Source of the DNA: an uncultured Gammaproteobacteria bacterium | GTDB taxonomy: Bacteria; Patescibacteriota; Microgenomatia; Woykebacterales; RBG-16-39-9b | Direction of reading: 5' to 3' | Assembly: GCA_965231125.1 (NCBI GenBank) | Contig: OZ246414.1 | Span: forward strand, 81,739-145,738 | Length of the DNA stretch: 64,000 bases | In this document: positions 7,566 through 53,750 of the stretch, one piece after another | How positions within the stretch are numbered: the stretch's first letter is position 1 | How the letters are laid out: each line of letters opens with the position of its first letter | The notes under the pieces: generated by a model | Told to the model about the DNA's origin: nothing | Database searches by the model: none | What the model saw: only the letters and a program-made list of their open reading frames with translations | Translations under genes and position numbers: made by a program

Positions 7566-9350
7566 TTAGCGAGATTCGCTTTTAAGTTGGGTGAGTTGGA
7601 GTGAAAGATCACGAAATTGTTTAGTTAAATTTTGTATCTTAGTTTCTTGTGAAACAGCTTCCGCTTGCTTGATTTCTAGTCCCAGCTTGCGCAGTTTCGT
7701 TCGTAAGTTTAACTCTTTGATTCGGCTCATGCAAGAGGAGATTTCTTTTTCTGAGCTTTCCGGGGAACCCTCTATCTCTTCACCAAGGTCATACAATATC
7801 GACTCGTCGTACAAAGGAAGAAGGCTTTCTGGAACTTGATTAGAAAAAGTTTTTAATTTTAGCCGACCTTCACTTTTAACTTGGTTTTTAATAAGCTTGA
7901 ATAAAGATTTTGTTTCTTCTTTATAGAAAAATTCTTCGGACAATTCTGCAGGTAAAACTCCGGTCTGTAAAACTAGCACCAGCAAATATTTTTCTAAGAT
8001 ATCTATCCTACTGCTTTTGGCGGCAGGGGTCTGTTCCACGACAGCCTGTTCAGTGTAACCGGCCGTGGTAACCGCTGTCCTTGGCAAGTATTTTTTCAAA
8101 TCGGCTCTTACTGCCTCTTCACTAACATCCAAAAGAGCGGCTATTTTTTGAATGTAATGGTCGCGACTAATTTCGTCGGCGATTTTCGCAATAAAAGGCA
8201 GAACTTCTTTTGAGATTTGCCGTTTACCTTCCGCTTCAGTTAGGTTAGATTGTCGAGCGGCCACGCTAATAACGAAATCGTAAACTGGTACAGCCTTTTT
8301 TATTCTCTCCTTCCAGACAGTTGGGTTTTTCCGAATTAAAAGATCTGGGTCTTTATCTTCGCCGAGTTCAATAACTTTGACAGAAAATCCTGCCTCTTCA
8401 GCAAGTTCAATTCCTCTTTTGGCGGCGGAACCGCCGGCAATATCCACGTCAAACCCAAATAACAGTTTATCGGCGGTTCTTCTTAAAATAGTAAGCTGCT
8501 TTTCTGTCAAAGCAGTTCCCAAGGGCGCAACCGTGTTGGTAACTCCAACTTGGTGGGAAGAAATAACGTCCAGGTTTCCTTCAACCAAAATCGCCGTCTT
8601 TTGCCGGCTTATTTCCCCTTTGGCTAGATCGATACCATAAAGGGAATTACTTTTGTTAAACACGATGCTATCGGGGGAATTTAAATATTTTGGCTCGCGC
8701 GAACCAAGAGCTCTACCAGAAAAAGCAACTACCCGTCCTTGGGAATCTTTAATCGGGAACATCACCCGACCTTTAAACCTGTCAAAATTTTTATTGCCGT
8801 CACCGGAAACGCTCACCCCAGCTGCTCCCAGATCTTCTTTCGAAAAACCTTTTTTAAAGAAAAAACGCGTCGCCAAATCTTGCCTTTCCGGGGCAAAACC
8901 GAGTTGAAATTTTTTTATTGAGGGGTCCGAGATTTTTCTCGCGTGCAGGTATCCAAGGGCCGCTTTTCCCACCTCATGCTTTGTTAGAAGGAAATTGTAA
9001 AGCTCGGCCGCGAGTTTGTTTATCGAAAATATCAGTTCTCTTCTCTTCTCAATTCCGCTCGGTTTATACTCCTTCAGTTGCACACCGGCTCGGGCGGCAA
9101 GTTTCCTAATCGCCTCCCCGAACTCTACACCATCTGCTCTTTTTACAAAAGCAAAAACATCTCCGCCCTCCCCGCAACCAAAACATTTAAAAATTTGCCT
9201 GTCGGCCGAAACCATAAAGGAGGGGGTCTTTTCAGCATGAAAAGGGCACAGTGCCTTGTAGTTGCGCCCGGCTTTTTTCAAAGATACATACTCGCCAATT
9301 AAAGCAACAATATCTACCTTACGTTTTATCTCTTCTATCTGATTATCCAT
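7566..9350 (-). CDS. dnaG: DNA primase DnaG
   Basis: Zn-ribbon [16 protein letters not shown] and TOPRIM EGNLDV. Start set at ATG 9350 (MDNQIEEIK) because the longer ORF runs through the tRNA-Ser gene. Confidence 0.9.
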
Positions 9351-9360
9351 CAAATTTGAA

Positions 9361-9450
9361 TGGCGGAGGGGGTGGGATTTGAACCCACGATACCCTTGCG
9401 GGCATGCACGCTTTCCAAGCGTGTGCACTAGGCCACTATGCGACCCCTCC
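9361..9450 (-). tRNA. tRNA-Ser (anticodon GGA)
   Basis: Reverse complement ggaggggtcgcatagtgg...ct-t-GGA-aa...long variable arm...gggttcaaatccc...ccctccgcca. Confidence 0.9.
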
Positions 9451-9484
9451 AAGTTCAGCCATTATACCAGAAAAATAAATTAAC

Positions 9485-9513
9485 TTGACTAGACAAGCAA
9501 GCAGTAGTATTAT
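9485..9513 (+). promoter_or_regulatory. sigma-70-type promoter TTGACT-N17-TATTAT for the GC-rich ORF
   Basis: TTGACT 9485-9490, 17-nt spacer, TATTAT 9508-9513. Confidence 0.45.
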
Positions 9514-9568
9514 TTGTTCCACAAGGACAGAGGTTTGTTTGGTCGGGCAAAAAGGAAGGAAGGTGCAC

Positions 9569-10051
9569 ATGAAACTCCGAGGAATCTTGACGATGCTATT
9601 CGCGATGTTCGCTTTCGCGCTCACCATCGTCGCGGCTCTCGCCGGTACGAGTGCTTCGTACGCGGTGCCGGCAACACAAGGCATCAAGACGACAAGCCAC
9701 CGACGCAGCTTGCTGGCAACGCTGCTGTTACCTGTAGCGTTCCTCGCAGGTCTACTGCTGACAATCACCAACATCAACGTGACGACGTCAACCGACACAC
9801 CGACGGACACACCGACCGCAAAACACCGCAGATGGGGCCTGTTCGCTCTGATCACTGGAGCAATCGGCGCTCTCATGCTGCTGTTACGACTGTCGACAAC
9901 CGGCACCGACGATCGAGTTCCGATCGAACGTCTGCAAACGCACCTTGACCAGAGCAGGTCGGGCGCGGGGACGAAGGGCGACGGCGACGTTCATCACAAA
10001 GAGGTCAACTACACGACTCCTGTTCCGGTAGCGGCTCCCGCCGGCACGTGA
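9569..10051 (+). CDS. GC-rich membrane/secreted protein (160 aa, unknown function)
   Basis: ATG 9569 preceded by ggaaggaagg. Signal-like MKLRGILTMLFAMFAFALTIVAALA, two further TM segments and a TDTPTDTPT repeat. Composition visibly GC-richer than the neighbours. Confidence 0.5.
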   Translation: MKLRGILTMLFAMFAFALTIVAALAGTSASYAVPATQGIKTTSHRRSLLATLLLPVAFLAGLLLTITNINVTTSTDTPTDTPTAKHRRWGLFALITGAIGALMLLLRLSTTGTDDRVPIERLQTHLDQSRSGAGTKGDGDVHHKEVNYTTPVPVAAPAGT

Positions 10052-10215
10052 ACATCGACGATCGGTACGTAAGCGCTCCTTTCCTTCCTTTCCGGTCGGA
10101 ACTGAGGCGCTCTAGCTAACTACTTAACCCGCTGGTTATTAAGTAGTTCAGTAACCAAGAACCAGCAAGTTTTCATCAGGACGTCCTGGCCCGACCACCA
10201 ACCTCGTCCTGTCTC

Positions 10216-10256
10216 AGCCCACCTTGTGTTTTCACCAGGTGGGCTTTACTTTTTTA
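10216..10256 (+). terminator. terminator hairpin closing the GC-rich insert (overlaps the Nudix stop)
   Basis: agcccacct / aggtgggct 9-bp stem followed by ttactttttt. Confidence 0.55.
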
Positions 10257-10716
10257 ATAACTCTCTTGCTTTTCGGAAAATTTCTTTATCACTTTTGAAG
10301 GAGAGGGTTCCTTCAACCTCATCGCTTGGTATCCACTGCGCGTCTTCCATTTCCCAATCGTGATCCGCTGGATCACCGGACAAATATTCCATCAGAAAAT
10401 ACGTAACTTTTTTCTTAACTAGCTGGCCTTCGAGTTTGTAGAAATATTCTATTGGTGAGAATTCTTGGACTATCTTTGCTTCCACTCCGCCTTCTTCTTT
10501 TACTTCGCGGACGGCAGTTGTTTGTCTGTCTTCGCCCGGATCAATAAGACCTTTGGGAAAAACCCAACCGTGGTGTTGGGAATGCTTTGTAAGGAGAATA
10601 TGAATTTGACTGTCCTCTTTTTTTAGTCCGGCTGGACGCAAGCTCCGCTTTAGTCGAGGACGTAAGCTCCGCTTATAGACAATGCCGCCAGCGCTTTTTT
10701 CAAATTTAAGAGCCAT
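10246..10716 (-). CDS. Nudix hydrolase
   Basis: Nudix box GLIDPGEDRQTTAVREVKEEGGVEA. Carries an N-terminal repeat-encoded insert KRSLRPRLKRSLRPAGLKK. Confidence 0.85.
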   Translation of the reverse strand: MALKFEKSAGGIVYKRSLRPRLKRSLRPAGLKKEDSQIHILLTKHSQHHGWVFPKGLIDPGEDRQTTAVREVKEEGGVEAKIVQEFSPIEYFYKLEGQLVKKKVTYFLMEYLSGDPADHDWEMEDAQWIPSDEVEGTLSFKSDKEIFRKARELLKK

Positions 10717-10783
10717 GTTTTTGCCTTTCAGCTTACTCTCTGGTAAAATTATACGCGTTTTTGAGGTAAAAAAGTAAATTCTT

Positions 10784-10859
10784 GCCCCCGTAGCTCAGTG
10801 GATAGAGCGCAACGTTGCGGACGTTGAGGCCGGAGGTTCGAATCCTCTCGGGGGCACCA
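10784..10859 (+). tRNA. tRNA-Arg (anticodon GCG)
   Basis: gcccccg ta gctc agtggata gagc g caacg tt-GCG-ga cgttg ... ggttcgaatcc ... cgggggc a cca. Confidence 0.85.
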
Positions 10860-10860
10860 T

Positions 10861-10950
10861 GGAGGGATGCCGGAGTGGTTTAACGGCCAGGTCTCGAAAA
10901 CCTTGGGTCCCGTAAGGGGCACGGAGGTTCAAATCCTCCTCCCTCCGCCA
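10861..10950 (+). tRNA. tRNA-Ser (anticodon CGA)
   Basis: ggagggatgccggagtgg..., anticodon loop ct-CGA-aa, long variable arm, encoded CCA. Confidence 0.9.
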
Positions 10951-10958
10951 CTAATATT

Positions 10959-11029
10959 GTCCCAGTAGCTCAGTGGAAAGATCGCTACGCGCTCTGCGAC
11001 CACTTCGTAGTCTAAAAGCGCAAAAACAT
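10959..11029 (+). pseudogene. tRNA-like 5' fragment fused to the dispersed repeat (not a functional tRNA)
   Basis: gtcccagtagctcagtggaaagatcgc mimics the acceptor and D-arm of the adjacent tRNA-Arg(CCG) (gtccctgtggctcaatggatagagcac). It continues as acgcgctctgcgacc... with no T-arm. Confidence 0.45.
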
Positions 11030-11105
11030 GTCCCTGTGGCTCAATGGATAGAGCACCAGTTTCCGGAACTGGGGATTGAGAGTTCGAATCTCTCCAGGGA
11101 CACCA
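11030..11105 (+). tRNA. tRNA-Arg (anticodon CCG)
   Basis: gtccctg tg gctc aatggata gagc a ccagt tt-CCG-ga actgg ... gagagttcgaatctctc cagggac a cca. Confidence 0.9.
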
Positions 11106-11123
11106 CTACCTTCTTAATATCAT

Positions 11124-11762
11124 TTAGCTGGCCATTTTGTGGAATAATTTTGAAAGGGTTTCGCCCAGACTGTCCATCCAAGAAGTTTTTGGAACTTCGC
11201 GGTAGGGCAAATATCTAAGCAGCGCGGATTTAACTTTTTCTTTTTCTTTGGGGTCAATAATCATTATTAACCTAGCTGGAAAATTTACTAAAGTGTCTAT
11301 GTTAAGGACGGTTGACCCGTGTTTTTCGGTAAACCAAAAATCATAAAGTTCTTCCCAAAGATAGTTGTGAGTGCCCGTGATAATACCTTGATTGGTAATT
11401 TTATGATTAAGGTTATCTGGTGGAACGGAAGCCAAAACGTAAGCTAAAAAGGCTATCGCCAAAACGGGCGCAATTATGAAAAACTCCCTAACAAAAACCA
11501 GAATTAGAATAATTAAAATTGTCAGCAAGACAACGTACATAAGCCATTTTTTCCCTCGCGGAATAAAAACGTGGGCGGGGGAGGCCCACTCATACAAGGT
11601 TTTTACCTCAAACTCGCCCTCTCCCTCCTGACCTTCAAGTTCAGCTATTTTTGAGTGAAGACTATCAAGTTGTTCTTTTAACCCTGCGATTTGGTTTTCT
11701 TTGCCAGCTTGAGGGTTTGGAGAAGGGTTTCTCTTAAAAAACCGTTTTTGAGCAGACGCCAT
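11124..11762 (-). CDS. membrane protein (2 TM, unknown function)
   Basis: 212 aa. N-terminal coiled segment, a hydrophobic hairpin, then a soluble C-terminal domain. Confidence 0.5.
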   Translation of the reverse strand: MASAQKRFFKRNPSPNPQAGKENQIAGLKEQLDSLHSKIAELEGQEGEGEFEVKTLYEWASPAHVFIPRGKKWLMYVVLLTILIILILVFVREFFIIAPVLAIAFLAYVLASVPPDNLNHKITNQGIITGTHNYLWEELYDFWFTEKHGSTVLNIDTLVNFPARLIMIIDPKEKEKVKSALLRYLPYREVPKTSWMDSLGETLSKLFHKMAS

Positions 11763-11845
11763 ATATTTTTATGATACTACTAAATTTGCGCTTTTCCAAG
11801 AGCCGTTGAATTTAACCAGCCTTTTTGTTAGAATTTGCACACTCT

Positions 11846-11935
11846 GGAGGGGTCGCATAGCTGGTCCATTGCACGGGTTTGCTAAACCCGCGAGCCTTTT
11901 GGCTCACGTGGGTTCGAATCCCACCCCCTCCGCCA
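11846..11935 (+). tRNA. tRNA-Ser (anticodon GCT)
   Basis: ggaggggtcgcatagctgg..., anticodon loop tt-GCT-aa, long variable arm, CCA. Confidence 0.9.
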
Positions 11936-12025
11936 GGAGAGGTGGCCGAGTGGTTTAAGGCGACGGTCTTGAAAACCGTTTCCCGAGTAATCGGGACGGG
12001 GGTTCGAATCCCTCCCTCTCCGCCA
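11936..12025 (+). tRNA. tRNA-Ser (anticodon TGA)
   Basis: ggagaggtggccgagtgg..., anticodon loop ct-TGA-aa, long variable arm, CCA. Directly abuts the previous tRNA. Confidence 0.9.
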
Positions 12026-12035: not shown

Positions 12036-12704
12036 TTATCTAGATCTAGCCAGAGTTAATCCCCAAACTTTTTCGGCGCCGGCCCTCTTCAAAACTGTCG
12101 CGCAGTTTTTTAAAGTGGCCCCAGAAGTCCAAACGTCATCAAAAAGTAAAAAACCTTCTCCCCGAACAGAGTCTTTATCGATGCACTCGAAAGCCTCTTT
12201 CACATTTTCTTTTCTTTTTTCGCGAGACAAATTAACCTGCGCCCTTGTGGCTTTTTCTCTTTTTAAAATTCCTGTTTTTAACTTCAGTTTTAATTTTTCG
12301 GCCAAAAAACTTGCTAGAAGTTCTGACTGATTAAAATCTCGCCATCTTTGTCTTCCTCCATGTAAAGGTATCGGCGTTAGATAAAATTTTTCAAGAAAGC
12401 TTGGCAATTTAGGGTTTACGTACTCAACCAAACTTTCGGCTAAATCTTTAACAAACTTATATTTTAATTTATACAAGGCTTGGGGGATTGGGTCCGAGTA
12501 ATAAACCAAGCAGTAGAGGCCGTTCAAAGCCAGTCTCGTTTGACATTTTGGGTGGGTTGTACCAAGAATTGAGGCTCTTCCGCAAACGGGGCACGTATGG
12601 TTTGTAACGAACTGAATATTTTTCCGACACTGCCGGCAAATATAAAAACCAAGCTTGCCGCAACCCACACATGTTTTCGGAAAAACTAAATCCAATAGCC
12701 CCAT
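12036..12704 (-). CDS. comF: ComF family protein (phosphoribosyltransferase domain)
   Basis: N-terminal Zn-finger CVGCG..C..C...CPVCG and PRTase motif LLFDDVWTSGATL. Start moved to ATG 12704 because the longer ORF overlaps the tmRNA terminator. Confidence 0.75.
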   Translation of the reverse strand: MGLLDLVFPKTCVGCGKLGFYICRQCRKNIQFVTNHTCPVCGRASILGTTHPKCQTRLALNGLYCLVYYSDPIPQALYKLKYKFVKDLAESLVEYVNPKLPSFLEKFYLTPIPLHGGRQRWRDFNQSELLASFLAEKLKLKLKTGILKREKATRAQVNLSREKRKENVKEAFECIDKDSVRGEGFLLFDDVWTSGATLKNCATVLKRAGAEKVWGLTLARSR

Positions 12705-12749: not shown

Positions 12750-13112
12750 TGGTGGAGATGATGGGTATTGCACCCATGTCCGTGAAAGAATGATAACCAG
12801 ATACTACAAGCTTAGCTAACCTTAATCTCCTTTGGCTCCTACCGGTTAGCAGGATCAGTACCAAAGCAGGTTGTTGATAAGTTCTGAGTAGATTTAGGTT
12901 ACCAACCTAAAAATAATCGTCTTGGCTCCTGTTGCACTCTTAGGGCTTCACCAAGATAAAGCTTAAAAGAGCGCTCGATTACGCGAAAGCGAGTCGAGAT
13001 GAAAATGCCTTGTTGGCATTTACGAATTTGCCTGCAGATTTAACGGCTTCTAACAAGCTTATGCCGGCTTGCATCTAACTCACCAGTCTCACCGTCGAAA
13101 TTAGACATCCCC
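12750..13112 (-). ncRNA. ssrA: tmRNA (ssrA)
   Basis: 5' ggggatgtctaatttcgacgg, 3' T-arm plus catctccacca with a G3:U pair. Tag ORF GCC AAC AAG ... TAA (13017-12979) encodes ANKAFSSRLAFA. Adjacent to smpB. Confidence 0.85.
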
Positions 13113-13145: not shown

Positions 13146-13610
13146 TTAATTAGATTGTTTTTGTGCTTTTAATTTTGTCTCGCGAAGAATAGACTCGGCT
13201 TCTCTGTCCAAAGCCCTCTTCTTTAGGGCCTCTCGTTTATCTACTTTCTTTTTGGCCCGAGCCAGAGCAACCTCTACCTTCACCAGATTATGCTTAGTAT
13301 ACACCTTTATAGGCACAATTGTCAAGGAGGAGGTGGTTAGCTTGCCAGCTAGGTGATCTATCTCGTCCCGACGCAAAAGGAGCTTGCGCTTCCTTCTCGG
13401 GTCATAAGAAGGGTCAATTGCAAGTTTGTACGGTGATATATAGGCATTAATTAAAAACGCTTCGGCTCCATCAATTCTCACGTAAGAATCTGCAAGAGTC
13501 GCACTACCTTCTTTTAGAGACTTTACTTCGGCTCCAGAAAGCGCCATTCCCGCCTCAAATTTTTCGTAAAGAAGATAGTTGTAACGCGCCTTTTTATTTA
13601 CTACGCTCAT
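13146..13610 (-). CDS. smpB: SsrA-binding protein SmpB
   Basis: 154 aa: NKKARYNYLL..FEAGMALSGAEVKSL...YDPRRKRKLLL. Confidence 0.95.
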   Translation of the reverse strand: MSVVNKKARYNYLLYEKFEAGMALSGAEVKSLKEGSATLADSYVRIDGAEAFLINAYISPYKLAIDPSYDPRRKRKLLLRRDEIDHLAGKLTTSSLTIVPIKVYTKHNLVKVEVALARAKKKVDKREALKKRALDREAESILRETKLKAQKQSN

Positions 13611-26364: not shown

Positions 26365-26431
26365 GGCAGGTGTATTTAAATTCTATCCTTTGATAGCTTT
26401 AAAAACAATCCTTATCAAGAAGGTGTCCTTA

Positions 26432-26537
26432 GCTAGCCATTAAGATGGCTAGCACAGGATTCGGGAGTACCCGAATCACTTGGATTTGGTTACGGAGAAT
26501 CCTTAGTCCAAAGGACGCGGGACACTTTAAGTGTCCC
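26432..26537. repeat. hairpin cluster containing the left copy of the 33-bp inverted repeat
   Basis: Four consecutive hairpins: 26432-26453 (9-bp perfect stem), 26456-26503 (aggattc/gaatcct outer stem), 26506-26516, 26519-26537 (gggacac/gtgtccc). The 33-mer 26465-26497 is the reverse complement of 33337-33369 (32/33). Confidence 0.6.
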
Positions 26538-26549
26538 ATAGCCAATGTA

Positions 26550-26558
26550 TGCTATAAT
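26550..26558 (+). promoter_or_regulatory. extended -10 promoter TGcTATAAT for the GC-rich lipoprotein gene
   Basis: TG 26550-26551, TATAAT 26553-26558, about 52 nt upstream of ATG 26611. Confidence 0.45.
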
Positions 26559-26610: not shown

Positions 26611-27501
26611 ATGAAAAGGCTGCTGCCACTGGCAGCGATAACGCTTTTGGTTGTTCTGGCTTACGCTTGCGGAGCTAAGGCCAGTACGCTAAAGAGCAAC
26701 ACTAACGCAGCTTCTGGCCTAGAAGCACAAATAACGCCTTGGGAAAAAGCTCAAGACGTGGCGAATGTTTCGCCAGAGATCACCAAAGCAGAGCTTGGTG
26801 ATGGAGCAGAGCTTGCAAACGAAATTTCGTTTGCAACTCTACGTCCGTTTTACCTAGCTCAATTCACGGGACTATCCTACGACTCCAATTACCAGTGGTC
26901 CGATTGGAGTTCCGATCCGCAAGGACAGCAGTTGGCCAGTGAAATCGAGCAAGAAGGGGTGGCGAGTAAACAAGAAACGCTGGACGGTTTGTACGCATCT
27001 AGTTTCATCCGCTACCATACCGGTACACTGAGCTGGGATGGGACTTCGCTTGGTGCTTGCCCACCAGGACCGCAGCATTTGGTGATTATCACCACAATCG
27101 TGTTCGGGCAAGCCGAAGGGGCCGCTTCCTTCTTCAACAATATTGTTCTACCGGAAGACGACGGTCTGAAGGGCCAGGTGGAGGCTCACCCTACTAACGG
27201 TACCACCGGGTTCGCTTGGTTCGACGAGCAAGAGAAGCAAAACACTTGTCTCTTGCCGGTCCAAAACGATGGGATGGTGGAGACTCACTACATAACCTAC
27301 CCAAGAAAGCAGAGTATTGCCTGGGTAGTCACTGGTACTTTTGTGATCAGAGTGGTAGAGACACTCGGCACATCAACAACAGCCAATCTAACTACCAACA
27401 CTGGTGAGTCCTTTAATCCAGACCCGAACCACTCTGCTGGCAATTACGCTAGCGATCAGGAAACGGCACTGAGATCGGCTTTACCGGAATATTTCCAGTA
27501 A
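26611..27501 (+). CDS. GC-rich putative lipoprotein (296 aa, unknown function)
   Basis: ATG 26611 with GAAGGAGGAG SD. MKRLLPLAAITLLVVLAYAC is lipobox-like. The upstream-extended ORF start at 26545 is unlikely. Confidence 0.55.
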   Translation: MKRLLPLAAITLLVVLAYACGAKASTLKSNTNAASGLEAQITPWEKAQDVANVSPEITKAELGDGAELANEISFATLRPFYLAQFTGLSYDSNYQWSDWSSDPQGQQLASEIEQEGVASKQETLDGLYASSFIRYHTGTLSWDGTSLGACPPGPQHLVIITTIVFGQAEGAASFFNNIVLPEDDGLKGQVEAHPTNGTTGFAWFDEQEKQNTCLLPVQNDGMVETHYITYPRKQSIAWVVTGTFVIRVVETLGTSTTANLTTNTGESFNPDPNHSAGNYASDQETALRSALPEYFQ

Positions 27502-27504
27502 CCC

Positions 27505-27537
27505 AAAGCGGTTCGAAATCACATCGAACCGCTTTTT
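27505..27537 (+). terminator. rho-independent terminator of the lipoprotein gene
   Basis: aaagcggttcga / tcgaaccgcttt 12-bp stem plus T-run. Confidence 0.7.
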
Positions 27538-27539
27538 CA

Positions 27540-27568
27540 TTGACAAATAAACTCGGCATCTATAAAAT
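27540..27568 (+). promoter_or_regulatory. TTGACA-N17-TAAAAT promoter, -10 ends 7 nt before the ATG (leaderless-type)
   Basis: TTGACA 27540-27545, TAAAAT 27563-27568, ATG 27576, no SD. Confidence 0.55.
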
Positions 27569-27575
27569 TGAATTA

Positions 27576-29270
27576 ATGTCTCTGCCCAAAAGATTAATTT
27601 TAATCTTTACTGTAATTTTAATTGCGATTTCCTTTTTTAGCTTAATTCCCCTAACGCAAGCCGCCTCTTCGGCTAGCAAACCTCAGAATAATCAACCGGT
27701 AAGTTCTAATAAAATCCAACCGATACCGGCTTCTTCAAACACAAATTTTCAGTACATTCCGACACCAAATGGAAATTACCAAAACCAAGAAGTAGCCCTT
27801 GGACCTGTTGGCGATTGGTTTGCTAATCGATTTCACGACGCAATCACCTTTTTCAGTGACCCTCTAGCTCCAATAGTAAAAGCGGCTCTCTTCTGGACTC
27901 AAGACGCTGCCTACCAACAGGCGGAAGGTTGTCCTTTTGAGGATGCCCAGTGCCATAATGATCAACGCCAACAATACCTTGCCGGAACTGATATTGCCCA
28001 CCTTTCTCACCCTGGAGCGCTGGATTACGCTTCCACCCTTTTGAGTAGTAGTTTAGATCTTCCGGTCCCCCTCGACTCAAGTCAATACTTCGCCTCGATT
28101 AATCCTTTTAGCCAGGCCCATGCATCCGGGGTTGGGGACCTCGCTCAAGACCCCATCCTTCACGTCTGGCAAAGAGTCCGAAATGTTGCCTACGCTGCCA
28201 GTGCGGTGATAATGATAATTTTGGGCTTTATGATAATGCTGCGTTGGAAACTAGACCCCCGAACCTCTGTGACAATTGCAAATTCCCTGCCCCGAATAAT
28301 TGTTGCTTTACTTTTAATTACCTTTAGCCTGGCTATTGCCGGTTTAATGATTGACCTCGCCAGAATAGTCACCAACCTTGCCACTGATTTGATTCCAATT
28401 ACGCTGCGCGGGGCGATGGGGTTAGCAGTTCTCGGTTTTTTTGCAGTGGGATCTTTGGTCCTGCTTTTTACTGCTGGCAGTACTATTGCTGCGGGCCCGG
28501 CTGGCCTCAGTATCGCCTTCATTACAGTTCTTCTGCTGTCGTTGATTTTGGTGATAATAATACTAGTTGTCTTCATTGTCCTTATTTATAAAATCTTAAT
28601 GCGCTATATAACCTTCATCGTTTTGACAATTTTTGCGCCTTTCTTTTTCTTAATTGGGGCCATTCCGGGGCTGGAAGGCGTAACCGCCAGCTGGTTTAAA
28701 CGCCAAATTGCCGCCCTTCTGGCAATACCGGCCATTGCCCTGATGGTTAATCTTTCCTTTTGGATTGGTTTTTCTGGTGCTGGCAATCTACCCAATCCCT
28801 GGCAGACAGGACCGTTACCAGTTGGTATCGTTGGAAATATTTTAAACTGGACAATTCTTTCCCCGATTGTCGGGCTTGGACTTTTCTTCTTCGCCACAAA
28901 AATGCCGGATATTATTGATGAGATGTTGCAAGTTAAACCTCTCGGTGCCAGAGCCGGAATCGGCCCCGGTGCTATACTCGGCGCCCCGATCGCTGCCTTT
29001 GGAACGCTCGGAACTGTTAACAGAGGTTTTCGAACCTTCCAACAAGGAGGTATGCTTTACGGCGCTTTACAAAATGATTCCCTTCTTGGCCGCTTATACC
29101 GACCTGTGGCACGTTTTGGTAGTTCTTTCCGTAAAAACCCAAAACCAGCCTTTCCACCTGCAGCTGGTGACGCGTGGGGTCAGGGTCTAAGAGATTTTGA
29201 ACGAAGCCGACAGGCTCAAGGACAACCTAGACAGGAAGGTGAACCACCCGACAGACCCCCAGGGACATAG
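27576..29270 (+). CDS. polytopic membrane protein, VirB6/TrbL-like (type IV secretion channel component analogue)
   Basis: 564 aa from MSLPKRLILIF. Signal/TM, an extracellular region of about 150 aa, then about 7 TM segments and a Pro/Gly/Arg-rich tail. Assignment rests on architecture and context only. Confidence 0.5.
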   Translation: MSLPKRLILIFTVILIAISFFSLIPLTQAASSASKPQNNQPVSSNKIQPIPASSNTNFQYIPTPNGNYQNQEVALGPVGDWFANRFHDAITFFSDPLAPIVKAALFWTQDAAYQQAEGCPFEDAQCHNDQRQQYLAGTDIAHLSHPGALDYASTLLSSSLDLPVPLDSSQYFASINPFSQAHASGVGDLAQDPILHVWQRVRNVAYAASAVIMIILGFMIMLRWKLDPRTSVTIANSLPRIIVALLLITFSLAIAGLMIDLARIVTNLATDLIPITLRGAMGLAVLGFFAVGSLVLLFTAGSTIAAGPAGLSIAFITVLLLSLILVIIILVVFIVLIYKILMRYITFIVLTIFAPFFFLIGAIPGLEGVTASWFKRQIAALLAIPAIALMVNLSFWIGFSGAGNLPNPWQTGPLPVGIVGNILNWTILSPIVGLGLFFFATKMPDIIDEMLQVKPLGARAGIGPGAILGAPIAAFGTLGTVNRGFRTFQQGGMLYGALQNDSLLGRLYRPVARFGSSFRKNPKPAFPPAAGDAWGQGLRDFERSRQAQGQPRQEGEPPDRPPGT

Positions 29271-29353
29271 CTTCGCCAGCAATACCACTAGTTGCACCAT
29301 CCTGATATAATTCAAGTCACGGGAAATACTGACCTGACGCTAAAGGAGAGGTT

Positions 29354-29542
29354 ATGGTAAAAATAATATCCTTCCTATTAGGTCTCCAACGAGGTGGTTT
29401 ACTTTGGTCCCTGCTGGCTCAGCCTGATGGAGTTCTTCGCAGGTTAGCCAAATCGCTTCTGCGAATTGGTAGTTTTCGAAGAAAACGACAGATACCAGCA
29501 ATACCGCCAGACCCTTCACAGACACGCAGGATCCGAAACTAG
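29354..29542 (+). CDS. possible small basic protein (62 aa)
   Basis: AAAGGAGAGG SD 2-3 nt from the ATG and an extended -10 TGaTATAAT at 29312-29320. No homology recognised, so it could be non-coding. Confidence 0.3.
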   Translation: MVKIISFLLGLQRGGLLWSLLAQPDGVLRRLAKSLLRIGSFRRKRQIPAIPPDPSQTRRIRN

Positions 29543-29603
29543 GCAAAAGAAAAGGGCCGGTTCGTACATTAAGCATTTCTGCTTATTGCACTTACCGGCC
29601 CTT
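29543..29603 (-). terminator. terminator of the 1111-aa gene
   Basis: On the minus strand, aagggccggt / accggccctt 10-bp stem (32-nt loop with inner agca/tgct stem) followed by ttcttttg. Confidence 0.5.
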
Positions 29604-29609
29604 CGCAAC

Positions 29610-32600
29610 CTAAGCGGCTACAATCACAAATCCGCTATTGGGTTCTGGCACTGCGCTCGTAACTAGGTTGTTGTGGCCCATATAGACCATCTTGATGTAC
29701 CTGATGTAACGCTGCTTCTCCTCCTCTCCTATGTTCCTAATCGCTTCCCGTAGAACGTTATTGATTTGGTCCCAGCGATATTTGTCGACGATCATTTCCG
29801 CAAGCTTCATAGAGTATCGGGAGTCAATTTTTGCCCAGCGGGCAATAGTGACAGTCAGGCGATCAACGTCCATCTCCCTCATCGCCTTGCCTCTCTGGAC
29901 TCCATCTTGCTCTTTGAACCTAGAGAGCCACCAACTATTACCCTTTAGGCTCTTGGCGCTTTCCTTAACGAACTCGAGTTCGTCTGTCTCACTCCAGTGA
30001 CCAAGCTCCCGCGCCCTGGCTTTACCGAGACTGTTGTCGAACACTCGGTTCCACCAAACCCATTCCCCATCTCGAACAAATTTGGACTCTGACTCAGCAT
30101 CGTCCCCGATTCGGAAGGGGTAACCCTCGCTGATCCAGGAACCGTAGGTGCCTCCGGAGAAAGCGTGGGCCCGACCCAAAAGGGTGAGCTCCATCTCCCT
30201 CTCTTCCTGGTAAGCGATCGCTGGTCTGCGCAGATCCCAAATCATTCGCTCCATACCGATCCGGCGACCACCAGGAAGCCCGAGATCGAATCTGCCCTTC
30301 GGAATTACGATGGTGGGTAGGCCTTCGGTGTTCCGCCGGACTACGGGGACCACCTGCTGCACCCGGTTAGTCATCGCTTCTTGCAAAGCGTACTGAACCC
30401 TAGCCCGCTTTGGCTCCTCGGGCTGGTGAGCCCACATTGCGTACATGAAGTTACGCGCTGCAGTGGCGTTGTCGTAGTTCACCCGAATGAAGCTATCATA
30501 GCCGTACGTATTTGGGTTGGACAAGCGCACGTTAAGCACCGCCAACGCATTCATCTGACCTAGAATCGCCTCGTTCTGCAGCCAAACGGTGATAGGGTCT
30601 CGGACGGCAAACTCGATGGTACGGGTCCAATCGTCCTCGTCTCGGTAGTTGCGTACCCTGCTGGTGAACTCCTTAACTAGCGTGTCAAAGTCGGGCATCG
30701 CCCCATCACCAGCCGCCGAGTTTAGCCCTCGCTCGCGCTTGAGCTGATCCAAGGCGACTGCCATTGCCTCGGCGTACAAAGTTGCCTGAGCACCGTCGTG
30801 AGGCATCTTCTGCCAGGGTTCCTTGAAGAACCAGGCCCAGTCAAGTAGCGAGCGACGAAGCTCAACCCTTTCCTGGGACACCTCCACGAAACGCTCAAAT
30901 ATCTCGTTTCCGAGAACGTACGCTTCCCTTTCGTCCCGAGTCGGTTCTTTGATCTCCGAGAAGACAGCCTGCCATTCCTCATGAACAAGCTTGTCCGGTA
31001 TCTCTTCTGGACTAGGGATCGGCGCAAAAGCCTCCCCCCGATGCAGTTTGCCCAGAAGGTGGGCCTGGAACCGAGCGCACCGATGCAGAATCATGTACCG
31101 CCGGTCGCAGGTATAATCGATGCTCTCCCACTCACCACCGAAGTTGTTCTGGACATACCGAGCTACGTCCGCATCTTCCATATTCCAACCCTCACGTTTG
31201 GTCCGCATAGAGCGGGCCATCTGCCAGAATTGAATACGGTGCAGACGCTTTCTGCGTCGCTCGATATTTTCCGCCCTGTAGCGGAAGGTGGAGTGATCCA
31301 CCACTGGTTCCCAGCTACCGTAGGAAGGCTGGTAAACTAGCTTCCCTGTCTCCTTATCAACCTTGGATTTACCAGGACGGTATACCCAAGTCACGGTGGA
31401 TGGTTGCTCCACGTACACCGCGAGCTGCACGAGCTCCTTGAGAGCCTGTGCCTGGCTGACTGGATCCGAGGTTTGCGCCCCAAAAATATCCGCCAGAAGC
31501 CAAGGCTCGTTCATCTGCTCGCTTGGATACGAACGGTCCATGTTTTGGTCCACGAAGCTATCCTGATCGCGGAGCCAACGTGCCCACCATTTCTTTAGGG
31601 CTTTGCGACCCTTTGTCTTTTCGAGCTCTATCATCTCTTCTTCGGTGGGTATGCGGAATCCGCTAACTACCTCACCAGTTTTAGGATCGCGTTTCTGCTT
31701 CCGACGGACCGTTTCTTCGAAGTATTTCCACGTCGCCCCGTAACCGAAGTACTCGGTTCCATCCTCATCCGTATAGTAGAGGATTTTCTCCGAACACACT
31801 TTGTGAGCGAGCATGGTGCGGCCTTTTATGTTCAGGTCGCCCACGTCGATTTCGTACTTCTCAGTGTGCGGATTGTAGTGCAGGCCTTCGGGAAATTCCT
31901 GAAAGACCCCTTCACGAACGTTTGCACCATTGCGGTAATACTCCGCTTCCACGCGGCTGCGGAGTGCCTCTTTTTCAGCTTCAGACAGCTCTTCGAGCTC
32001 CCCGGTTTCGGGGTTCTCCACGAAGTAATACCACTGATCTGGTTCCTTCGGGCGAAGCTTCAGCCGAAGCGCGCGGCGGTAGACGTTGTCTTTCTCCCGC
32101 CATTCATCCATTGGTGCGTTGGGTTTGTGCGGTGGAGGGACTTTATTCAACCCTTCGTTGTTCACTGGAAGGTCTCCAGCTCCAACAGCAGGGTAGAACA
32201 CTCGATAGCGAGTAAAGTCCTCTCTCTTCGCGATATCCTCCGCGTGCAACTTGCGCATAACTTCCAGCCGGGAAGAGCCAGGGTTCTTTTTGAGAGCCCG
32301 ACGCATCCGGTGGTAGCTACGCGACACACGCCGAATTTCCCGGTGGTACATCCAGTTAGGATAGCGTCCACCGGGACCAATGTCTTGACGAACTCTAGCG
32401 TGGTTCAGCTCGGGCGAAAGAACGAACATGTTCGTGTCGATACGAACCTGCCCAAGAGAAACCTCAGAGTTCTCTATTTCTTGTTGAAGTTTCTGTACTT
32501 CTTCCCACATGTGCTTTTGTTTTACGGTGTCCGAGATTCCAAACGAGAGAGTGCTGATGAGAAACGGGTTTTTTCCCTTACGCTCAATAGCGTAGCATAG

Positions 32601-32945
32601 AATCGGTTCCCGCTCTCCCATTGGGAATTCGGGCTTTCCGTCTCTGCCAACCCGCCATACCCCGTCCCTTGGTACAACGACTCGCTCCTTAGGCTTGGCT
32701 GTAACCACTTCCATGAAGAAGCGGCGGCCACCCCTCTGCCCGTTGATCTGGAAACCTTGTTCCGAATACTGCGTCTCAGCCAGAGCTTTGAGCTCCTGCT
32801 CTAGCGATGGGAGACCAGCGTATGCCCCCGATCCATATTCGGCTGGGGTTATTACCAGATCCGGTATTCTACCGAACCTAGTTCCGGGAAGAGCTTCCTC
32901 GAACTCTTCGCCATAACCGTCACCGTCCCCATTACCATTTGTCAT
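29610..32945 (-). CDS. large GC-rich orphan protein (1111 aa, no recognisable domains)
   Basis: Uninterrupted ORF. Best start is ATG 32945 (MTNGNGDGDGYGEEF) with GAGGAGGA 8 nt upstream. No signal peptide or TM. Arg/Glu/Trp-rich. Confidence 0.7.
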   Translation of the reverse strand: MTNGNGDGDGYGEEFEEALPGTRFGRIPDLVITPAEYGSGAYAGLPSLEQELKALAETQYSEQGFQINGQRGGRRFFMEVVTAKPKERVVVPRDGVWRVGRDGKPEFPMGEREPILCYAIERKGKNPFLISTLSFGISDTVKQKHMWEEVQKLQQEIENSEVSLGQVRIDTNMFVLSPELNHARVRQDIGPGGRYPNWMYHREIRRVSRSYHRMRRALKKNPGSSRLEVMRKLHAEDIAKREDFTRYRVFYPAVGAGDLPVNNEGLNKVPPPHKPNAPMDEWREKDNVYRRALRLKLRPKEPDQWYYFVENPETGELEELSEAEKEALRSRVEAEYYRNGANVREGVFQEFPEGLHYNPHTEKYEIDVGDLNIKGRTMLAHKVCSEKILYYTDEDGTEYFGYGATWKYFEETVRRKQKRDPKTGEVVSGFRIPTEEEMIELEKTKGRKALKKWWARWLRDQDSFVDQNMDRSYPSEQMNEPWLLADIFGAQTSDPVSQAQALKELVQLAVYVEQPSTVTWVYRPGKSKVDKETGKLVYQPSYGSWEPVVDHSTFRYRAENIERRRKRLHRIQFWQMARSMRTKREGWNMEDADVARYVQNNFGGEWESIDYTCDRRYMILHRCARFQAHLLGKLHRGEAFAPIPSPEEIPDKLVHEEWQAVFSEIKEPTRDEREAYVLGNEIFERFVEVSQERVELRRSLLDWAWFFKEPWQKMPHDGAQATLYAEAMAVALDQLKRERGLNSAAGDGAMPDFDTLVKEFTSRVRNYRDEDDWTRTIEFAVRDPITVWLQNEAILGQMNALAVLNVRLSNPNTYGYDSFIRVNYDNATAARNFMYAMWAHQPEEPKRARVQYALQEAMTNRVQQVVPVVRRNTEGLPTIVIPKGRFDLGLPGGRRIGMERMIWDLRRPAIAYQEEREMELTLLGRAHAFSGGTYGSWISEGYPFRIGDDAESESKFVRDGEWVWWNRVFDNSLGKARARELGHWSETDELEFVKESAKSLKGNSWWLSRFKEQDGVQRGKAMREMDVDRLTVTIARWAKIDSRYSMKLAEMIVDKYRWDQINNVLREAIRNIGEEEKQRYIRYIKMVYMGHNNLVTSAVPEPNSGFVIVAA

Positions 32946-33086
32946 TTGTGTTTCCTCCTCGCTGTTGAACCACCTCGACTTAGTCGAGGGTGCTGACCGG
33001 CAAACTTTCTTTGTGAGAACTGTTTCCCACTTTGGTGTTTGCTGGATCAGCAGCAACACCAAGGGGCGGCCGAAGGCCAGTTTTAA

Positions 33087-33113
33087 ATTATAAGACGCGG
33101 GACATATGTCCAA
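33087..33113 (-). promoter_or_regulatory. candidate promoter (TTGGAC-N15-TATAAT) overlapping palindrome ggacatatgtcc
   Basis: Minus-strand TATAAT is the reverse complement of 33087-33092. TTGGAC is the reverse complement of 33108-33113. The spacer is short (15 nt). Confidence 0.3.
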
Positions 33114-33204
33114 AACACTAGAATCTTACATCCTAAATCTGACATCCATCCGTCCCTCGGTGTTACCTATACTAAGGAGGGGTCCTGGTTTTCACCGGGA
33201 CTTC

Positions 33205-33233
33205 GACTTGTCTAACGACAAGTCTTGTTTTTT
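33205..33233 (+). terminator. plus-strand terminator-like hairpin with no obvious upstream plus-strand gene
   Basis: gacttgtc-taac-gacaagtc perfect 8-bp stem followed by ttgtttttt. A second hairpin plus T-rich tract lies at 33260-33290. Confidence 0.45.
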
Positions 33234-33336
33234 GCTTGTTACCTCAATTTTTCGGCGTACTACAGGTTTAATCCTGTAGTTCTTTTGATCTTTATTCGTT
33301 TTTTAAGGTGCACATTAGCTTTTCGAAAATAGATCG

Positions 33337-33399
33337 CTCCGTAACCAAATCCAAGTGATTTGGGTACTCTCGCGTTCTGTGCTTTAAAAAAGCTAAGGG
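33337..33399. repeat. right copy of the inverted repeat (33-mer plus extended imperfect arm)
   Basis: ctccgtaaccaaatccaagtgatttgggtactc (33337-33369) is the reverse complement of 26465-26497 with 1 mismatch. The arm continues ...gttctgtgct..agctaaggg, matching 26427-26457. Confidence 0.65.
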
Positions 33400-33817
33400 C
33401 TCTGGGTGACAAATTTCTTATCAACCAGAGCCCACCTTCGGGGTCCTATGAAGGGACACCTCAACTCGGAGGTGGCTCTGGATTATTTAGTTTAATTTTA
33501 AGTTCGCCCTTACTCATTTTTTCTAGCCTCTACTGACTGGCCGAATTTTAGCATAACTTAGCTTAAATGTCAACTATAAGTCATTTTGTAACTTCGAAAC
33601 CTGCGAGCTCTTGGTTTCTCAGGTACTCTCACGTCTCGCGCTAGGCGTCTTAACGCCTAGCTAAGAGCGCATCGGTTTTTATTCGCGCAGTACGATACAG
33701 TTTGACTCGGTTGCTTTTAGCCTCCCCATGAGCCATAATAATCCCTACAATAGTCGTAAAAAGCTATTTTTCGGCGAAGGATCAGCGAAGCGAGCCGAAG
33801 TATTGTAACCAAAAGTT

Positions 33818-46705: not shown

Positions 46706-47425
46706 ATGGAAAAAATTGCACTGAACGCCTCGGCGCGAAAGATTTTAGGGAAAAAAGTTAAAAACCTGCGCAAAGAAGGGTCTATCCCCGCGAATCTTTT
46801 TGGAAAAGATATAAAATCGCAAGCTTTGCAAGTGGATGACAAAGATTTTCGTAAAGTGTTTAGGCAGGCCGGTGAAACCGGAATAGTGGAAATAAAAGAA
46901 GATAAAGAGACTCATCCAGTGTTAATTCATAATGTGCAGCTGGACCCAAAGACAGACCTAATTCTTCACGTTGATTTTCATAAAGTAAACTTAAAAGAAA
47001 AGATTACTACCCACGTGCCCGTTGTTTTGGAAGGCGAGTCTCCAGCCGCGAAAAGCGGTGTAGGATTAGTTTTGCAAACTCTGAACGAACTTGAAGTAGA
47101 ATCTTTGCCGGCAGATATTCCCCACGAAATAAAAGTGGACGCTTCTAAGTTGACAGAAGTAGGGCAGTCGATCCACGTTAAAGATTTAAAAATCGATAGA
47201 GAAAAAGTGGAAGTTAAGAATGATCCAGAAGCAACGGTTGTAAATGTGCAAACCGCGGAAATGAAAGAAGAAGTTGAAGAGACGCCAGTTTCGCCAGAAG
47301 AGGTCGAAGCCATTGCCGAAAAGGGTGAAAAAGAAGAGGCCGCAGAAGGCGAAGAGGGTAAAGAAGCTCCAACAGACGAGGGGGCTAAGGAAGAGCCTCA
47401 AACTAGCGAAGAAATCCCAGCATAA
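46706..47425 (+). CDS. rplY: 50S ribosomal protein L25/general stress protein Ctc with acidic C-terminal tail
   Basis: 239 aa: LNASARKILGKKVKNLRKEGSIPANLFGK, HPVLIHNVQLDP. Confidence 0.85.
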   Translation: MEKIALNASARKILGKKVKNLRKEGSIPANLFGKDIKSQALQVDDKDFRKVFRQAGETGIVEIKEDKETHPVLIHNVQLDPKTDLILHVDFHKVNLKEKITTHVPVVLEGESPAAKSGVGLVLQTLNELEVESLPADIPHEIKVDASKLTEVGQSIHVKDLKIDREKVEVKNDPEATVVNVQTAEMKEEVEETPVSPEEVEAIAEKGEKEEAAEGEEGKEAPTDEGAKEEPQTSEEIPA

Positions 47426-47492
47426 TAACCTAGAGTTGGTTAGTGAAAAAGTCCCTAGTTCGAGAAAATAGTTGTAAACTATTCTCGAACGC

Positions 47493-47543
47493 AGGATTCA
47501 CAGTAGCTGGCTCGCCAAGCGAGGTATAAGCTACGAGAATCCT
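47493..47543. repeat. hairpin with the same outer stem (aggattc...gagaatcct) as 26456-26503 but a different interior
   Basis: Outer stem 47493-47499 / 47537-47543. Inner stems gtagc/gctac and ctcgc/gcgag. Lies 5 nt upstream of the -35. Confidence 0.5.
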
Positions 47544-47547
47544 ATAG

Positions 47548-47576
47548 TTGACAAATCCTTTAAGTTGTGTTAAAAT
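47548..47576 (+). promoter_or_regulatory. TTGACA-N17-TAAAAT promoter of the 47.6-48.5 kb GC-rich unit
   Basis: TTGACA 47548-47553, TAAAAT 47571-47576. Confidence 0.5.
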
Positions 47577-47582
47577 ACACCC

Positions 47583-47825
47583 ATTAACAATTGAAAATAG
47601 ATCGCTAACGCGCTCTGCGTCGCTAGCGCTCCTAATGGTTACAAGGTAAAAACTTTTAAAGGCACTTTGTAACTGGAGTTGAAGTTATAGCTAACTGTCA
47701 TTACGGAAACGTCCTGAAGTCTAGAACAATTCGAGTCCAGTTACCAGGTGCCTTTGTGTATCTAGGCGGTACGTCTTGCTGACCCGGCAAGCTATCGTTA
47801 AACAAATTATGGGTATGGAGGAACG
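47583..47825 (+). promoter_or_regulatory. long (~245 nt) structured 5' leader containing a copy of the dispersed repeat
   Basis: Repeat copy 47594-47638. Long-range stem aaaggcac..taactgga (47658-47677) / tccagtta..gtgccttt (47735-47754). SD atGGAGGa 47816-47822. Confidence 0.4.
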
Positions 47826-48152
47826 ATGTCAGTCAGACACCCCCTGTCAGACGTCGAAAGTTTCGAAAAGAAAGGTGTTAGGTATGTTCGGGTTTGCCAC
47901 GTAGGAAAGGGATCATTCCACTTCGAAGTCTACAGACGAATCAAACGAAGTGGGAGGCTCCATATGATTATCAGACCAGAGGCATACTCTCCTATCAGTG
48001 GGGAACTTCGCCCTTCTTCATCAGCGGTGTTCGTGGCTGAAGCGCAAGAGGATCTGTTCTGGCGTATGGTGCTCCCTTTCACAGACGCTGTAAACAGGTT
48101 GCCCGACGACGTGTCAATACAATTCATAGGCTGGACAAAGTATGGTGTGTAG
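47826..48152 (+). CDS. GC-rich hypothetical protein (108 aa)
   Basis: ATG with GGAGGA SD. No family recognised. Confidence 0.45.
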   Translation: MSVRHPLSDVESFEKKGVRYVRVCHVGKGSFHFEVYRRIKRSGRLHMIIRPEAYSPISGELRPSSSAVFVAEAQEDLFWRMVLPFTDAVNRLPDDVSIQFIGWTKYGV

Positions 48153-48264
48153 TGGTAATAATCCACAATCAAGCTTTGCTTGATCCCCAAATCCTAAGCA
48201 AATCTCACATACGGTGTCGTCGCTGTCGTTAGCGGCTGACAAAATAGTCAGCTAGAAAGGACGA

Positions 48265-48480: not shown

Positions 48481-48503
48481 AAGGAGTAAAATCGGTGCCA
48501 CAG

Positions 48504-53746: not shown

Positions 53747-53750
53747 ATCC

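Follow-up and report, generated by a model that had tools for sequence, protein, structure and literature searches.

Comparative sequence evidence for an undescribed family of small extragenic palindromic units in Candidatus Woykebacteria

The 64,000-nt stretch of Candidatus Woykebacteria DNA studied here (contig OZ246414.1; hereafter the window) is an origin region, with rpoD, dnaG, tRNA genes, tmRNA/smpB, a cluster resembling type IV secretion systems, dnaA-dnaN-recF, rnpA-yidC-jag, rnhA, rplY, leuS, tsaD and groES/EL; the L25 protein gene occupies 46706-47425. Its intergenic spacers contain small hairpin units, two of which, here called s1 and s2, had been described in an earlier note as sharing an outer stem and flanks around different but self-complementary interiors. 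Both sequences are present on the + strand (Table 1), and each folds as described, an internal loop separating the 7-bp outer stem from the inner one. Judged by the comparisons given below, these hairpins belong to a family of small palindromic units in extragenic DNA that had not been described before and has so far been found only in Candidatus Woykebacteria.

Taken by themselves, s1 and s2 would be a modest basis for such a family. The pattern AGGATTC-N25-50-GAATCCT has two exact matches in the window, each on the + strand, and no additional hairpin appears there when one mismatch is tolerated; the likeness of the two sites is limited to the hairpin itself. Their predicted minimum free energies are -19.4 (s1) and -23.6 kcal/mol (s2); the 122 listed chance matches to the same pattern in viral contigs have a mean of -12.7 (standard deviation 4.3). 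The pattern-search expectation of 0.01 is valid only for a pattern fixed in advance, and a shared stem is weak evidence, as two inverted-repeat loci with a common 7-mer stem turn up in 96% of 200 Markov-shuffled windows, 7.5% additionally matching the three extra flanking bases. That the shared outer 7-mers exceed chance is thus only weakly significant for the pair alone, and it is homologues in relatives that establish its reality. There are at least 11 homologous members with a common junction, helix length and flanks and with covariation, and nhmmer links s1 with s3 (E = 2.7e-07) and L218 with L210 (E = 1e-12; L numbers denote loci of relatives), the s1-s4 match having E = 0.006. This family evidence refutes a chance resemblance of two unrelated intergenic hairpins, the probability of which we consider negligible.

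Copies s3 and s4 were spotted by reading the minus strand of a 700-nt spacer at 33.1-33.8 kb, and the relatives were sampled as ~0.86 Mb around rplY from related Woykebacteria metagenome contigs; members were found via sequence similarity, not pairing. The window contains four copies of the principal hairpin (hairpin B), all different except for the outer stem (P1) common to s1 and s2, and the relatives (~0.8 Mb) contribute seven or eight more, some at orthologous sites and others at new ones. Every member is intergenic, and copy number is low, at about one per 15-50 kb sampled. Perfect hairpins of at least 8 bp in noncoding window DNA are restricted to the spacers at 26.4 kb and 33.2-33.7 kb, so the hairpin unit is not a general property of the genome. 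The earlier note had proposed collecting all instances of AGGATTC...GAGAATCCT; this gave nothing new in the ~0.86 Mb of relatives, where instances came from the same species only, and a hunt for AGGATTC-N28-44-GAGAATCCT in viral contigs returned at least 120 matches, with only chance ones among those listed. Because P1 is variable, an exact-pattern hunt fails and would wrongly have led us to discard the finding.

Beyond the close relatives the searches were negative. More distant loci of the Candidate Phyla Radiation (CPR, or Patescibacteria), to which Candidatus Woykebacteria belong, gave nothing convincing, and a leuS-based scan of reference genomes found a nearest relative only 58% identical, with no usable synteny. 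An Rfam scan of the window at gathering thresholds reported tRNAs and tmRNA only, and at E <= 10 gave only noise for s1, s2, L218 and L234. Phage and plasmid collections had no match to the units, nor had viral contigs to a 21-base module pattern, and a phage or plasmid origin was rejected for that reason.

Table 1. Hairpins and promoter elements of the window, and family members at loci of relatives (positions are those of the window or of the locus named)
Feature	Location	Position	Strand	Description
s1 hairpin A	window	26432..26453	+	GCTAGCCAT-TAAG-ATGGCTAGC, TAG before
s1 hairpin B	window	26456..26503	+	P1 AGGATTC/GAATCCT, J1 GGGA, P2 GTACCCGAATC-ACTT-GGATTTGGTTAC, J2 GGA; R1 44.2 bits
s1 hairpin C	window	26516..26542	+	minimal unit with the same flanks, cgc-GGGACAC-TTTAA-GTGTCCC-atag; R1 18.7 bits
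Extended -10	window	26550..26558	+	TGcTATAAT, for 296-aa ORFan gene (26611-27501); no recognisable -35
s3 hairpin B	window	33331..33378	-	outer stem AGAACGC/GCGATCT (6/7 pairs); in long leader of 1111-aa gene
Predicted promoter	window	33545..33573	-	near-consensus TTGACA-17-TAAAAT with TG, 4 nt past s4 hairpin B
s4 hairpin B	window	33578..33637	-	P1 GAGACGT/ATGACTT (6/7 pairs, two G.U), J1 GAGA, P2 GTACC..GTTAC, J2 AAA, then ATAG; R1 39.8 bits
s4 hairpin A	window	33640..33661	-	GCTAGGCGT-TAAG-ACGCCTAGC, TAG before
s2 hairpin A	window	47458..47490	+	(G)TTCGAGAA..ATAGTT-GTA-AACTAT..TTCTCGAA(C), TAG before
s2 hairpin B	window	47493..47543	+	P1 AGGATTC/GAATCCT, J1 ACA, P2 GTAGC..GCTAC, J2 GA; R1 30.4 bits
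Predicted promoter	window	47548..47576	+	near-consensus TTGACA-17-TAAAAT with TG, 4 nt past s2 hairpin, ATAG between; scores 11/12
Weak partial copy, uncertain	window	47594..47619	-	..GCGTTAGCGATCT-ATTTTC, matches 3' end of s3 and L296; R1 17.8, R2 21.4 bits
Member	L218/L219	12150-12200	+	P1 AGGATCC/GGATCCT; tsaD-nyn spacer; then ATAG and TTGACA-17-TAGAAT
Member	L239	8362-8412	+	P1 AAGTCAC/GTGGCTT; site orthologous to L218
Member	L210-213	8344-8394	+	P1 AGGAGCC/GCGTCCT; 3' of rplY
Member, second copy	L210	8582-8627	+	P1 AGAGCGC/GCGATCT; within candidate noncoding RNA
Member	L226	11297-11346	-	P1 AGAGCGC/GCGATCT; leuS 3' untranslated region
Member	L234	13233-13294	-	P1 AGCACGC/GCTGGCT; directly 5' of leuS promoter
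Member	L296	9563-9618	+	P1 AGAGCGC/GCGATCT; s3 orthologue, in leader of sole homologue of 1111-aa protein (46% identity)
Degenerate remnant copies	L214, L241, L293

The consensus of hairpin B is a C, a 7-bp P1 of free sequence, a junction strand (J1) of 3-4 nt ending in A, GUA, a variable apex, UAC, a second junction strand (J2) (G)GA, and the returning arm of P1. The internal loop is purine-rich and asymmetric; the apex, counted from GUA to UAC, is 27-41 nt long and has in places been replaced wholesale. In subfamily 1 the inner helix (P2) has a conserved C.T mismatch at pair 4, and the L218 type has a 2-nt bulge. The hairpin of the earlier note is real, and it is one piece of a larger module comprising an upstream hairpin, hairpin B, sometimes a third hairpin, and a promoter. 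In the usual unit TAG, the small hairpin A and C(G/A)C precede hairpin B, and (A)TAG and then a -35 often follow it; units may be stacked in tandem, sometimes with the third hairpin before the promoter. A minimal version, CGC-stem-ATAG, lies 3' of s1 (26516-26542) and of the first L210 copy. The upstream hairpins of s1 and s4 are homologous, with two compensatory pair changes between them. The three-hairpin module of s1 is also bracketed by a near-direct 7-nt repeat, GTGTCCT at 26423-26429 and GTGTCCC at 26531-26537 (the 3' arm of hairpin C), and GGGACAC at 26519-26525 is able to pair with either.

Conservation of the pairing with replacement of the sequence, which the earlier note had suggested from two sites, is borne out by covariation over 10 distinct members aligned with the variable apex masked by N. 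Pairing cells amount to 88.3%, compared with 28-49% when the partners are slid by 1-3 columns, 8 of the 12 pairs (6 of the 7 in P1) are changed on both sides, and none of 500 shuffles reached the observed covariation score. The same note had seen the conserved part in the outer stem; instead, variation and covariation are greatest in P1 (AGGATTC, AGGATCC, AAGTCAC, AGAACGC, GAGACGT and others), and the constant parts are the nucleotides of the junction and, at the base of the inner helix, GUA/UAC. Comparison of orthologous sites is informative here. Between L218 and L239, whose flanking tsaD DNA is ~77% identical, four of the seven P1 pairs and two P2 pairs are compensated, with loop, junction, flanks and -35 unchanged. 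The s3 and L296 sites, where the flanking proteins are only 46% identical, agree in P1, junction and 3' flank but differ in their apices.

The copies also form mosaics of their two helices: s1 and s3 have a common P2, as do s4 and L226, and s3, L226 and L296 have a common P1. From s1 to s3 the P1 differs at three pairs and the 34-nt interior (J1-P2-J2, GAGAGTACCCAAATCACTTGGATTTGGTTACGGAG in s3) at two positions, and this pattern looks more like part exchange than gradual drift.

The units are present or absent at the same sites in different relatives. A 65-nt two-hairpin unit lies in the apex of a candidate noncoding RNA of L210 and is missing from three orthologues; the insertion is free of target duplication, and the hairpin stems are its only terminal repeats. 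The jag-rnhA spacer is filled by a unit in L293 only, and among relatives the rplY-leuS spacer ranges from 18 nt without a unit up to more than 1 kb with one. By these comparisons, the lineages differ in the sites at which they have gained or lost units. The rplY-leuS and nyn-tsaD spacers (window 47426-48539 and 53029-53807; L206-L212, L218, L293-L295) are indel hot spots among Woykebacteria: their length goes from 4-18 nt to ~2.8 kb, and in them lie, among other things, an ABC transporter, a MazE/PIN pair, small open reading frames (ORFs) and candidate noncoding RNAs.

The association with promoters (all of them consensus matches only) is a further property of the module. That s1 and s2 both lie directly upstream of predicted promoters for GC-richer ORFs, as the earlier note reported, is correct (GC 0.47-0.55, compared with 0.44 for the window). 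(A)TAG and a promoter follow 6 of the 11 members (s1, s2, s4, L218, L239 and L210), and four of these promoters are of near-consensus sigma-70 type and start 4-8 nt past the hairpin; in s2, s4 and L218 they read TTGACA-17-TGnTAnAAT, and the L239 contig ends after its -35. The -10 region of s1 aligns with those of the other modules. In ~0.5 Mb there are only seven extended -10 promoters close to the consensus, of which four are directly behind a unit. The idea that ATAG generally accompanies promoters was rejected; the strong promoters that have it are all behind modules.

Copies s1 (+) and s4 (-) flank a block at 26.6-33.1 kb with their promoters facing inward. The block (26611-33113) has three genes (296, 576 and 1111 aa) with GC of 0.47-0.54 in a window of 0.44. 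Its proteins have no Pfam, PHROGs or NCBIfam match, and among 5.8 billion sequences none is related to the 296-aa protein. For the 1111-aa protein one homologue was found, that of L296, which is 46% identical and has the same synteny beside PrgI/TraC/VirB4-like genes. A hairpin-rich leader of ~430 nt (33114-33545, - strand) precedes the 1111-aa gene, with its L296 counterpart at 9390-10000; both a large hairpin at 33424-33480 and s3 lie inside this leader and are kept in L296, and two T-tract hairpins in it (33205-33224 and 33259-33280) read as + strand terminators. Between the convergent 576-aa and 1111-aa genes, the hairpin GGGCCGGT...ACCGGCCC at 29555-29603 looks like a bidirectional terminator.

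Two noncoding stretches behind module promoters also deserve mention. A conserved, rod-like structured RNA candidate lies just 3' of the s2 promoter (47655-47760, + strand; stems AAAGGCAC..AACUGGAG ... CCAGUUACCAGGUGCCUUU), with homologues in L218 (7990-8111), L210 (8518-8690) and L262 (538-648) and five compensatory pairs; it has no Rfam match at E <= 10. Its L210 homologue is the candidate noncoding RNA whose apex contains the inserted 65-nt unit. In L218, ~270 nt of noncoding sequence (12238-12510) behind the module promoter is closed by a strong terminator, GCCCGCCCCGC...GCGGGGCGGGC plus a T tract, and has no Rfam match and no homologue in the other loci.

In what form the unit acts can be approached from its strand asymmetry. 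The sense strand folds more stably than the antisense strand in 8 of 9 members, G.T pairs number five versus one A.C, and the orientation is that of local transcription in 7 of 8 unambiguous contexts (rplY and leuS 3' untranslated regions, the large-gene leader, and the interior of the candidate noncoding RNA). Conservation is concentrated in two places, the foot of P1 and the P1/P2 junction; the spacing of the left and the right block varies by 14 nt, and it takes the folded form to give them a fixed geometry. This evidence favours a folded single strand over a duplex operator, without separating RNA from single-stranded DNA. It does not decide between the two proposals of the earlier note, a recombination site and a structured RNA; no recombinase gene is nearby.

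We consider it improbable, by the same evidence, that the unit is a double-stranded promoter element, i.e., an upstream operator or cruciform-prone inverted repeat centred near -65 that tunes the promoter or senses supercoiling between divergent genes. Negative supercoiling accumulates between divergent genes, several copies are so placed, and in s2, s4, L218 and L239 a gap of 4-8 bp separates the hairpin from the -35. However, the P1 half-sites covary and the conserved-block distance varies by 14 bp, and a duplex-binding protein would tolerate neither; the G.T pairs of one strand are C.A mismatches on the other, weakening a cruciform; and there is no promoter behind s3, L226, L296, the copy in the L210 noncoding RNA, or L293.

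The reading that we tentatively prefer, although we would put it at somewhat less than an even chance, is that the unit is a dispersed palindromic module of the REP/BIME or Correia kind, which acts as a folded sense strand, most simply as RNA where it is transcribed, and which punctuates transcription units and insulates the strong promoter that travels with it. The sense strand would fold when single-stranded, most likely as RNA wherever transcription enters it (3' untranslated regions, leaders and one candidate noncoding RNA), and as a punctuation hairpin would halt an incoming transcript, or process or protect its 3' end, thereby insulating the co-travelling promoter. A protein might read the constant geometry, that is the flanks, the 7-bp helix and the conserved purine internal loop, and not the stem sequence. 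The module would spread by duplication or insertion together with its promoter, and exchange of parts between copies would give the P1/P2 mosaics.

Several observations weigh against this proposal. The spacers of divergent genes contain four or five members (s1, s4, L218/L239 and L234), all 5' of the -35 of the sole recognisable promoter; as these fall outside every annotated transcript, they could act as RNA only through unseen promoters or read-through. No U tract follows s1, s2 and s4, which are thus not classical intrinsic terminators; a terminator scan called neither s2 nor s4, and at s1 called only an alternative inner hairpin. The stem is followed by TAGTCC or ATAGTT, with AUUUUCG only in s3 and L296. 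Classical terminators do exist here and are distinct from the hairpin family, as the hairpin at 29555-29603 and a canonical terminator at the 3' end of leuS (48506-48545) indicate. The sample of relatives is biased to the origin-proximal rplY neighbourhood, and the covariation alignment was registered by hand with the apex masked. Finally, a G.T asymmetry between strands is also typical of folded single-stranded DNA sites such as attC (PMC5027507), so this bias cannot separate RNA from single-stranded DNA.

A more specialised RNA role, in which the unit is a dedicated cis-regulatory motif whose internal loop is bound by a specific protein (a regulator, antiterminator or RNase) that controls the downstream gene, seems rather unlikely to us. 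It would suit the more stable sense strand, the constancy of the junction AGUA ... UAC-(G)GA while the helices are free to vary, and the position of s3 and L296 inside a conserved hairpin-rich leader (~430-600 nt) of a large orphan gene, where AUUUUCG follows. However, no consistent gene association is seen, with orphan genes, leuS or candidate noncoding RNAs downstream of some copies and other copies following rplY or leuS; the majority of copies lie 5' of the promoter, not in a leader; and no Rfam match appears even at E <= 10.

The other form that a folded single strand could take is a DNA site for recombination or transposition, of attC-like or HUH (IS200/IS605, REP-RAYT) type, with its enzyme encoded elsewhere in the genome. 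Cutting beside the hairpin, for example at the (A)TAG borders or between TCCT and TAG, would move the units or the adjacent promoter-bearing cassettes. We regard this as the main rival explanation, if an unlikely one. Copies between divergent genes would require no transcript, and the mosaic P1/P2 combinations would be accommodated. The layout of the unit mirrors that of attC: an outer box of 7 bp is followed by a spacer without pairing and by an inner box in which a mismatch is conserved, the terminal structure varies, and G.T pairs are biased to one strand (PMC5027507). The units border the indel hot spots and, as the inverted copies s1 (+) and s4 (-), the GC-rich ORFan block; and the insertion in the L210 noncoding RNA lacks target duplication and terminal inverted repeats, as do HUH-type elements. 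Left flanks before TAG are pyrimidine-rich (TCCT, TCCC, CCCT) and the 3' arm often ends in TCCT, so that tandem units look like serial insertions. Against this, Pfam and other family scans found no integrase, transposase, relaxase, Rep or Nop-domain protein in the 64-kb window, and a tblastn search with an approximate IS200 TnpA query, a weak test, had no match in ~1 Mb of loci. Two sites have stayed in orthologous positions despite deep divergence, and their loop and junction are under purifying selection, which is unusual for a pure transposition substrate, and both orientations occur on the window's left replichore, so no strict lagging-strand rule holds.

As is proposed here for the units, attC sites are recognised by structure and not sequence and are located at gene-cassette borders (PMC5027507). 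A variable terminal structure (s1/s2 and s3/L296) and one strand favoured by G.T are found in the units as well. However, the attC R box RYYYAAC/GTTRRRY with its AAC triplet (PMC5027507) is absent, as the P1 arms (AGGATTC, AGGATCC, AAGTCAC, AGAACGC, AGAGCGC, GAGACGT, AGCACGC and AGGAGCC) contain no GTT...AAC. The attC spacer is 5-6 nt per arm, with extrahelical bases near the L box, and the sites are 57-141 bp in size (PMC5027507), whereas the internal loop of the units has 3-4 nt in its 5' strand and 2-3 nt in its 3' strand, and the units measure 45-65 nt. The attC sites close promoterless cassettes in arrays next to an integron integrase gene (IntI), whereas the units are followed by promoters and form no array, and the window has no IntI gene. 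The ends of IS200/IS605-type elements (PATE) have strand-specific subterminal hairpins, lack terminal inverted repeats and target duplication, and insert beside a fixed short motif; the strand asymmetry and duplication-free insertion of the units fit, but their left flanks before TAG are not one fixed motif. The specific idea that the hairpin is a folded single-strand recombination site delimiting promoter-bearing cassettes, which would imply integron-like, structure-specific cassette exchange in CPR bacteria, strikes us as improbable; if true, it would explain the GC-rich ORFan block that s1 and s4 enclose, as well as the indel hot spots beside rplY, leuS and tsaD.

Our preferred reading, a dispersed punctuation module, draws its analogies from elements of other bacteria. 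The REP/BIME and REPIN elements of proteobacteria are likewise short extragenic imperfect palindromes arranged as stacked hairpin mosaics at operon borders and in 3' untranslated regions, are thought to work as folded single strands, and are dispersed via insertion (PMC3116915, PMC3337134). REPs, however, are high-copy and near-identical within a genome, and have a conserved head tetranucleotide and a cognate RAYT gene (PMC3116915, PMC3337134). The Woykebacteria units are low in copy number and differ in stem sequence from copy to copy, and what they conserve is the junction and the length of the 7-bp helix, with a consensus promoter attached; Pfam found no RAYT (Y1 HUH transposase) in the window. 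The Correia repeat-enclosed elements (CREE) of Neisseria are also small palindromic intergenic elements that form hairpins when transcribed, have promoter sequences at their ends by which they rewire genes nearby, and vary in presence between strains (PMC2649163; PMC2229807). They are 100-155-bp miniature inverted-repeat transposable elements with 26-bp terminal inverted repeats, a TA target duplication, an IHF site and hundreds of near-identical copies (PMC2649163; PMC2229807). The Woykebacteria units resemble them in having predicted promoter elements at the unit end, and differ in having no long terminal repeats, in consisting of consecutive hairpins, and in showing no target duplication at the one clean insertion (L210). 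A third analogy is with the BOX elements of Streptococcus pneumoniae, which are modular intergenic hairpin boxes, variable in number, that lie near promoters and affect neighbouring expression; unlike the Woykebacteria units, BOX modules are conserved in sequence and abundant. We know of no BOX sequence similarity to the units, nor of a covarying closing helix with a conserved junction described for BOX.

A number of other identities were considered and rejected. TIGR-Tas arrays consist of tandem stem-loops with two unpaired 8-12-nt spacers between box C/D motifs and lie beside a gene for a Nop-domain Tas protein (PMC12045711); the interior of the units is paired, they form no array, and the window has no Nop-domain protein. 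A kink-turn is not supported, as a tandem G.A register fits neither orientation across members. The apex of L234 holds UGGGUGGUUACC just 5' of leuS, yet there is no T-box or other Rfam match, and the other apices differ. A tRNA-like or tmRNA identity fails as well, ARAGORN and Rfam being negative at the hairpin sites; the six tRNA genes at 9361-12025 (four Ser, two Arg) adjoin tmRNA (12750-13112, - strand) and smpB (13146-13610). Three further resemblances were likewise set aside: a retron msr (UUAGC context), with no reverse transcriptase gene and no consistent register; a sarcin-ricin or loop-E motif at AGUA / GA, again with no consistent register; and a MOB-P oriT nick between ATCCTG and C on the antisense of the 5' arm, where P1 varies and the window has no relaxase gene.

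Repeats are scarce in the tiny, tightly packed genomes of CPR bacteria, and hardly any of their regulatory elements have been characterised. Here a dispersed unit of conserved structure brings with it one of the rare consensus promoters of such genomes, which suggests a way for accessory genes and candidate small RNAs to be plugged into the chromosome yet kept transcriptionally separate from what lies beside them. The motif and its covariance model could be used for mapping the borders of transcription units and islands in uncultured Woykebacteria, and also for seeking a junction-reading protein and for testing structure-specific recombination outside integrons.

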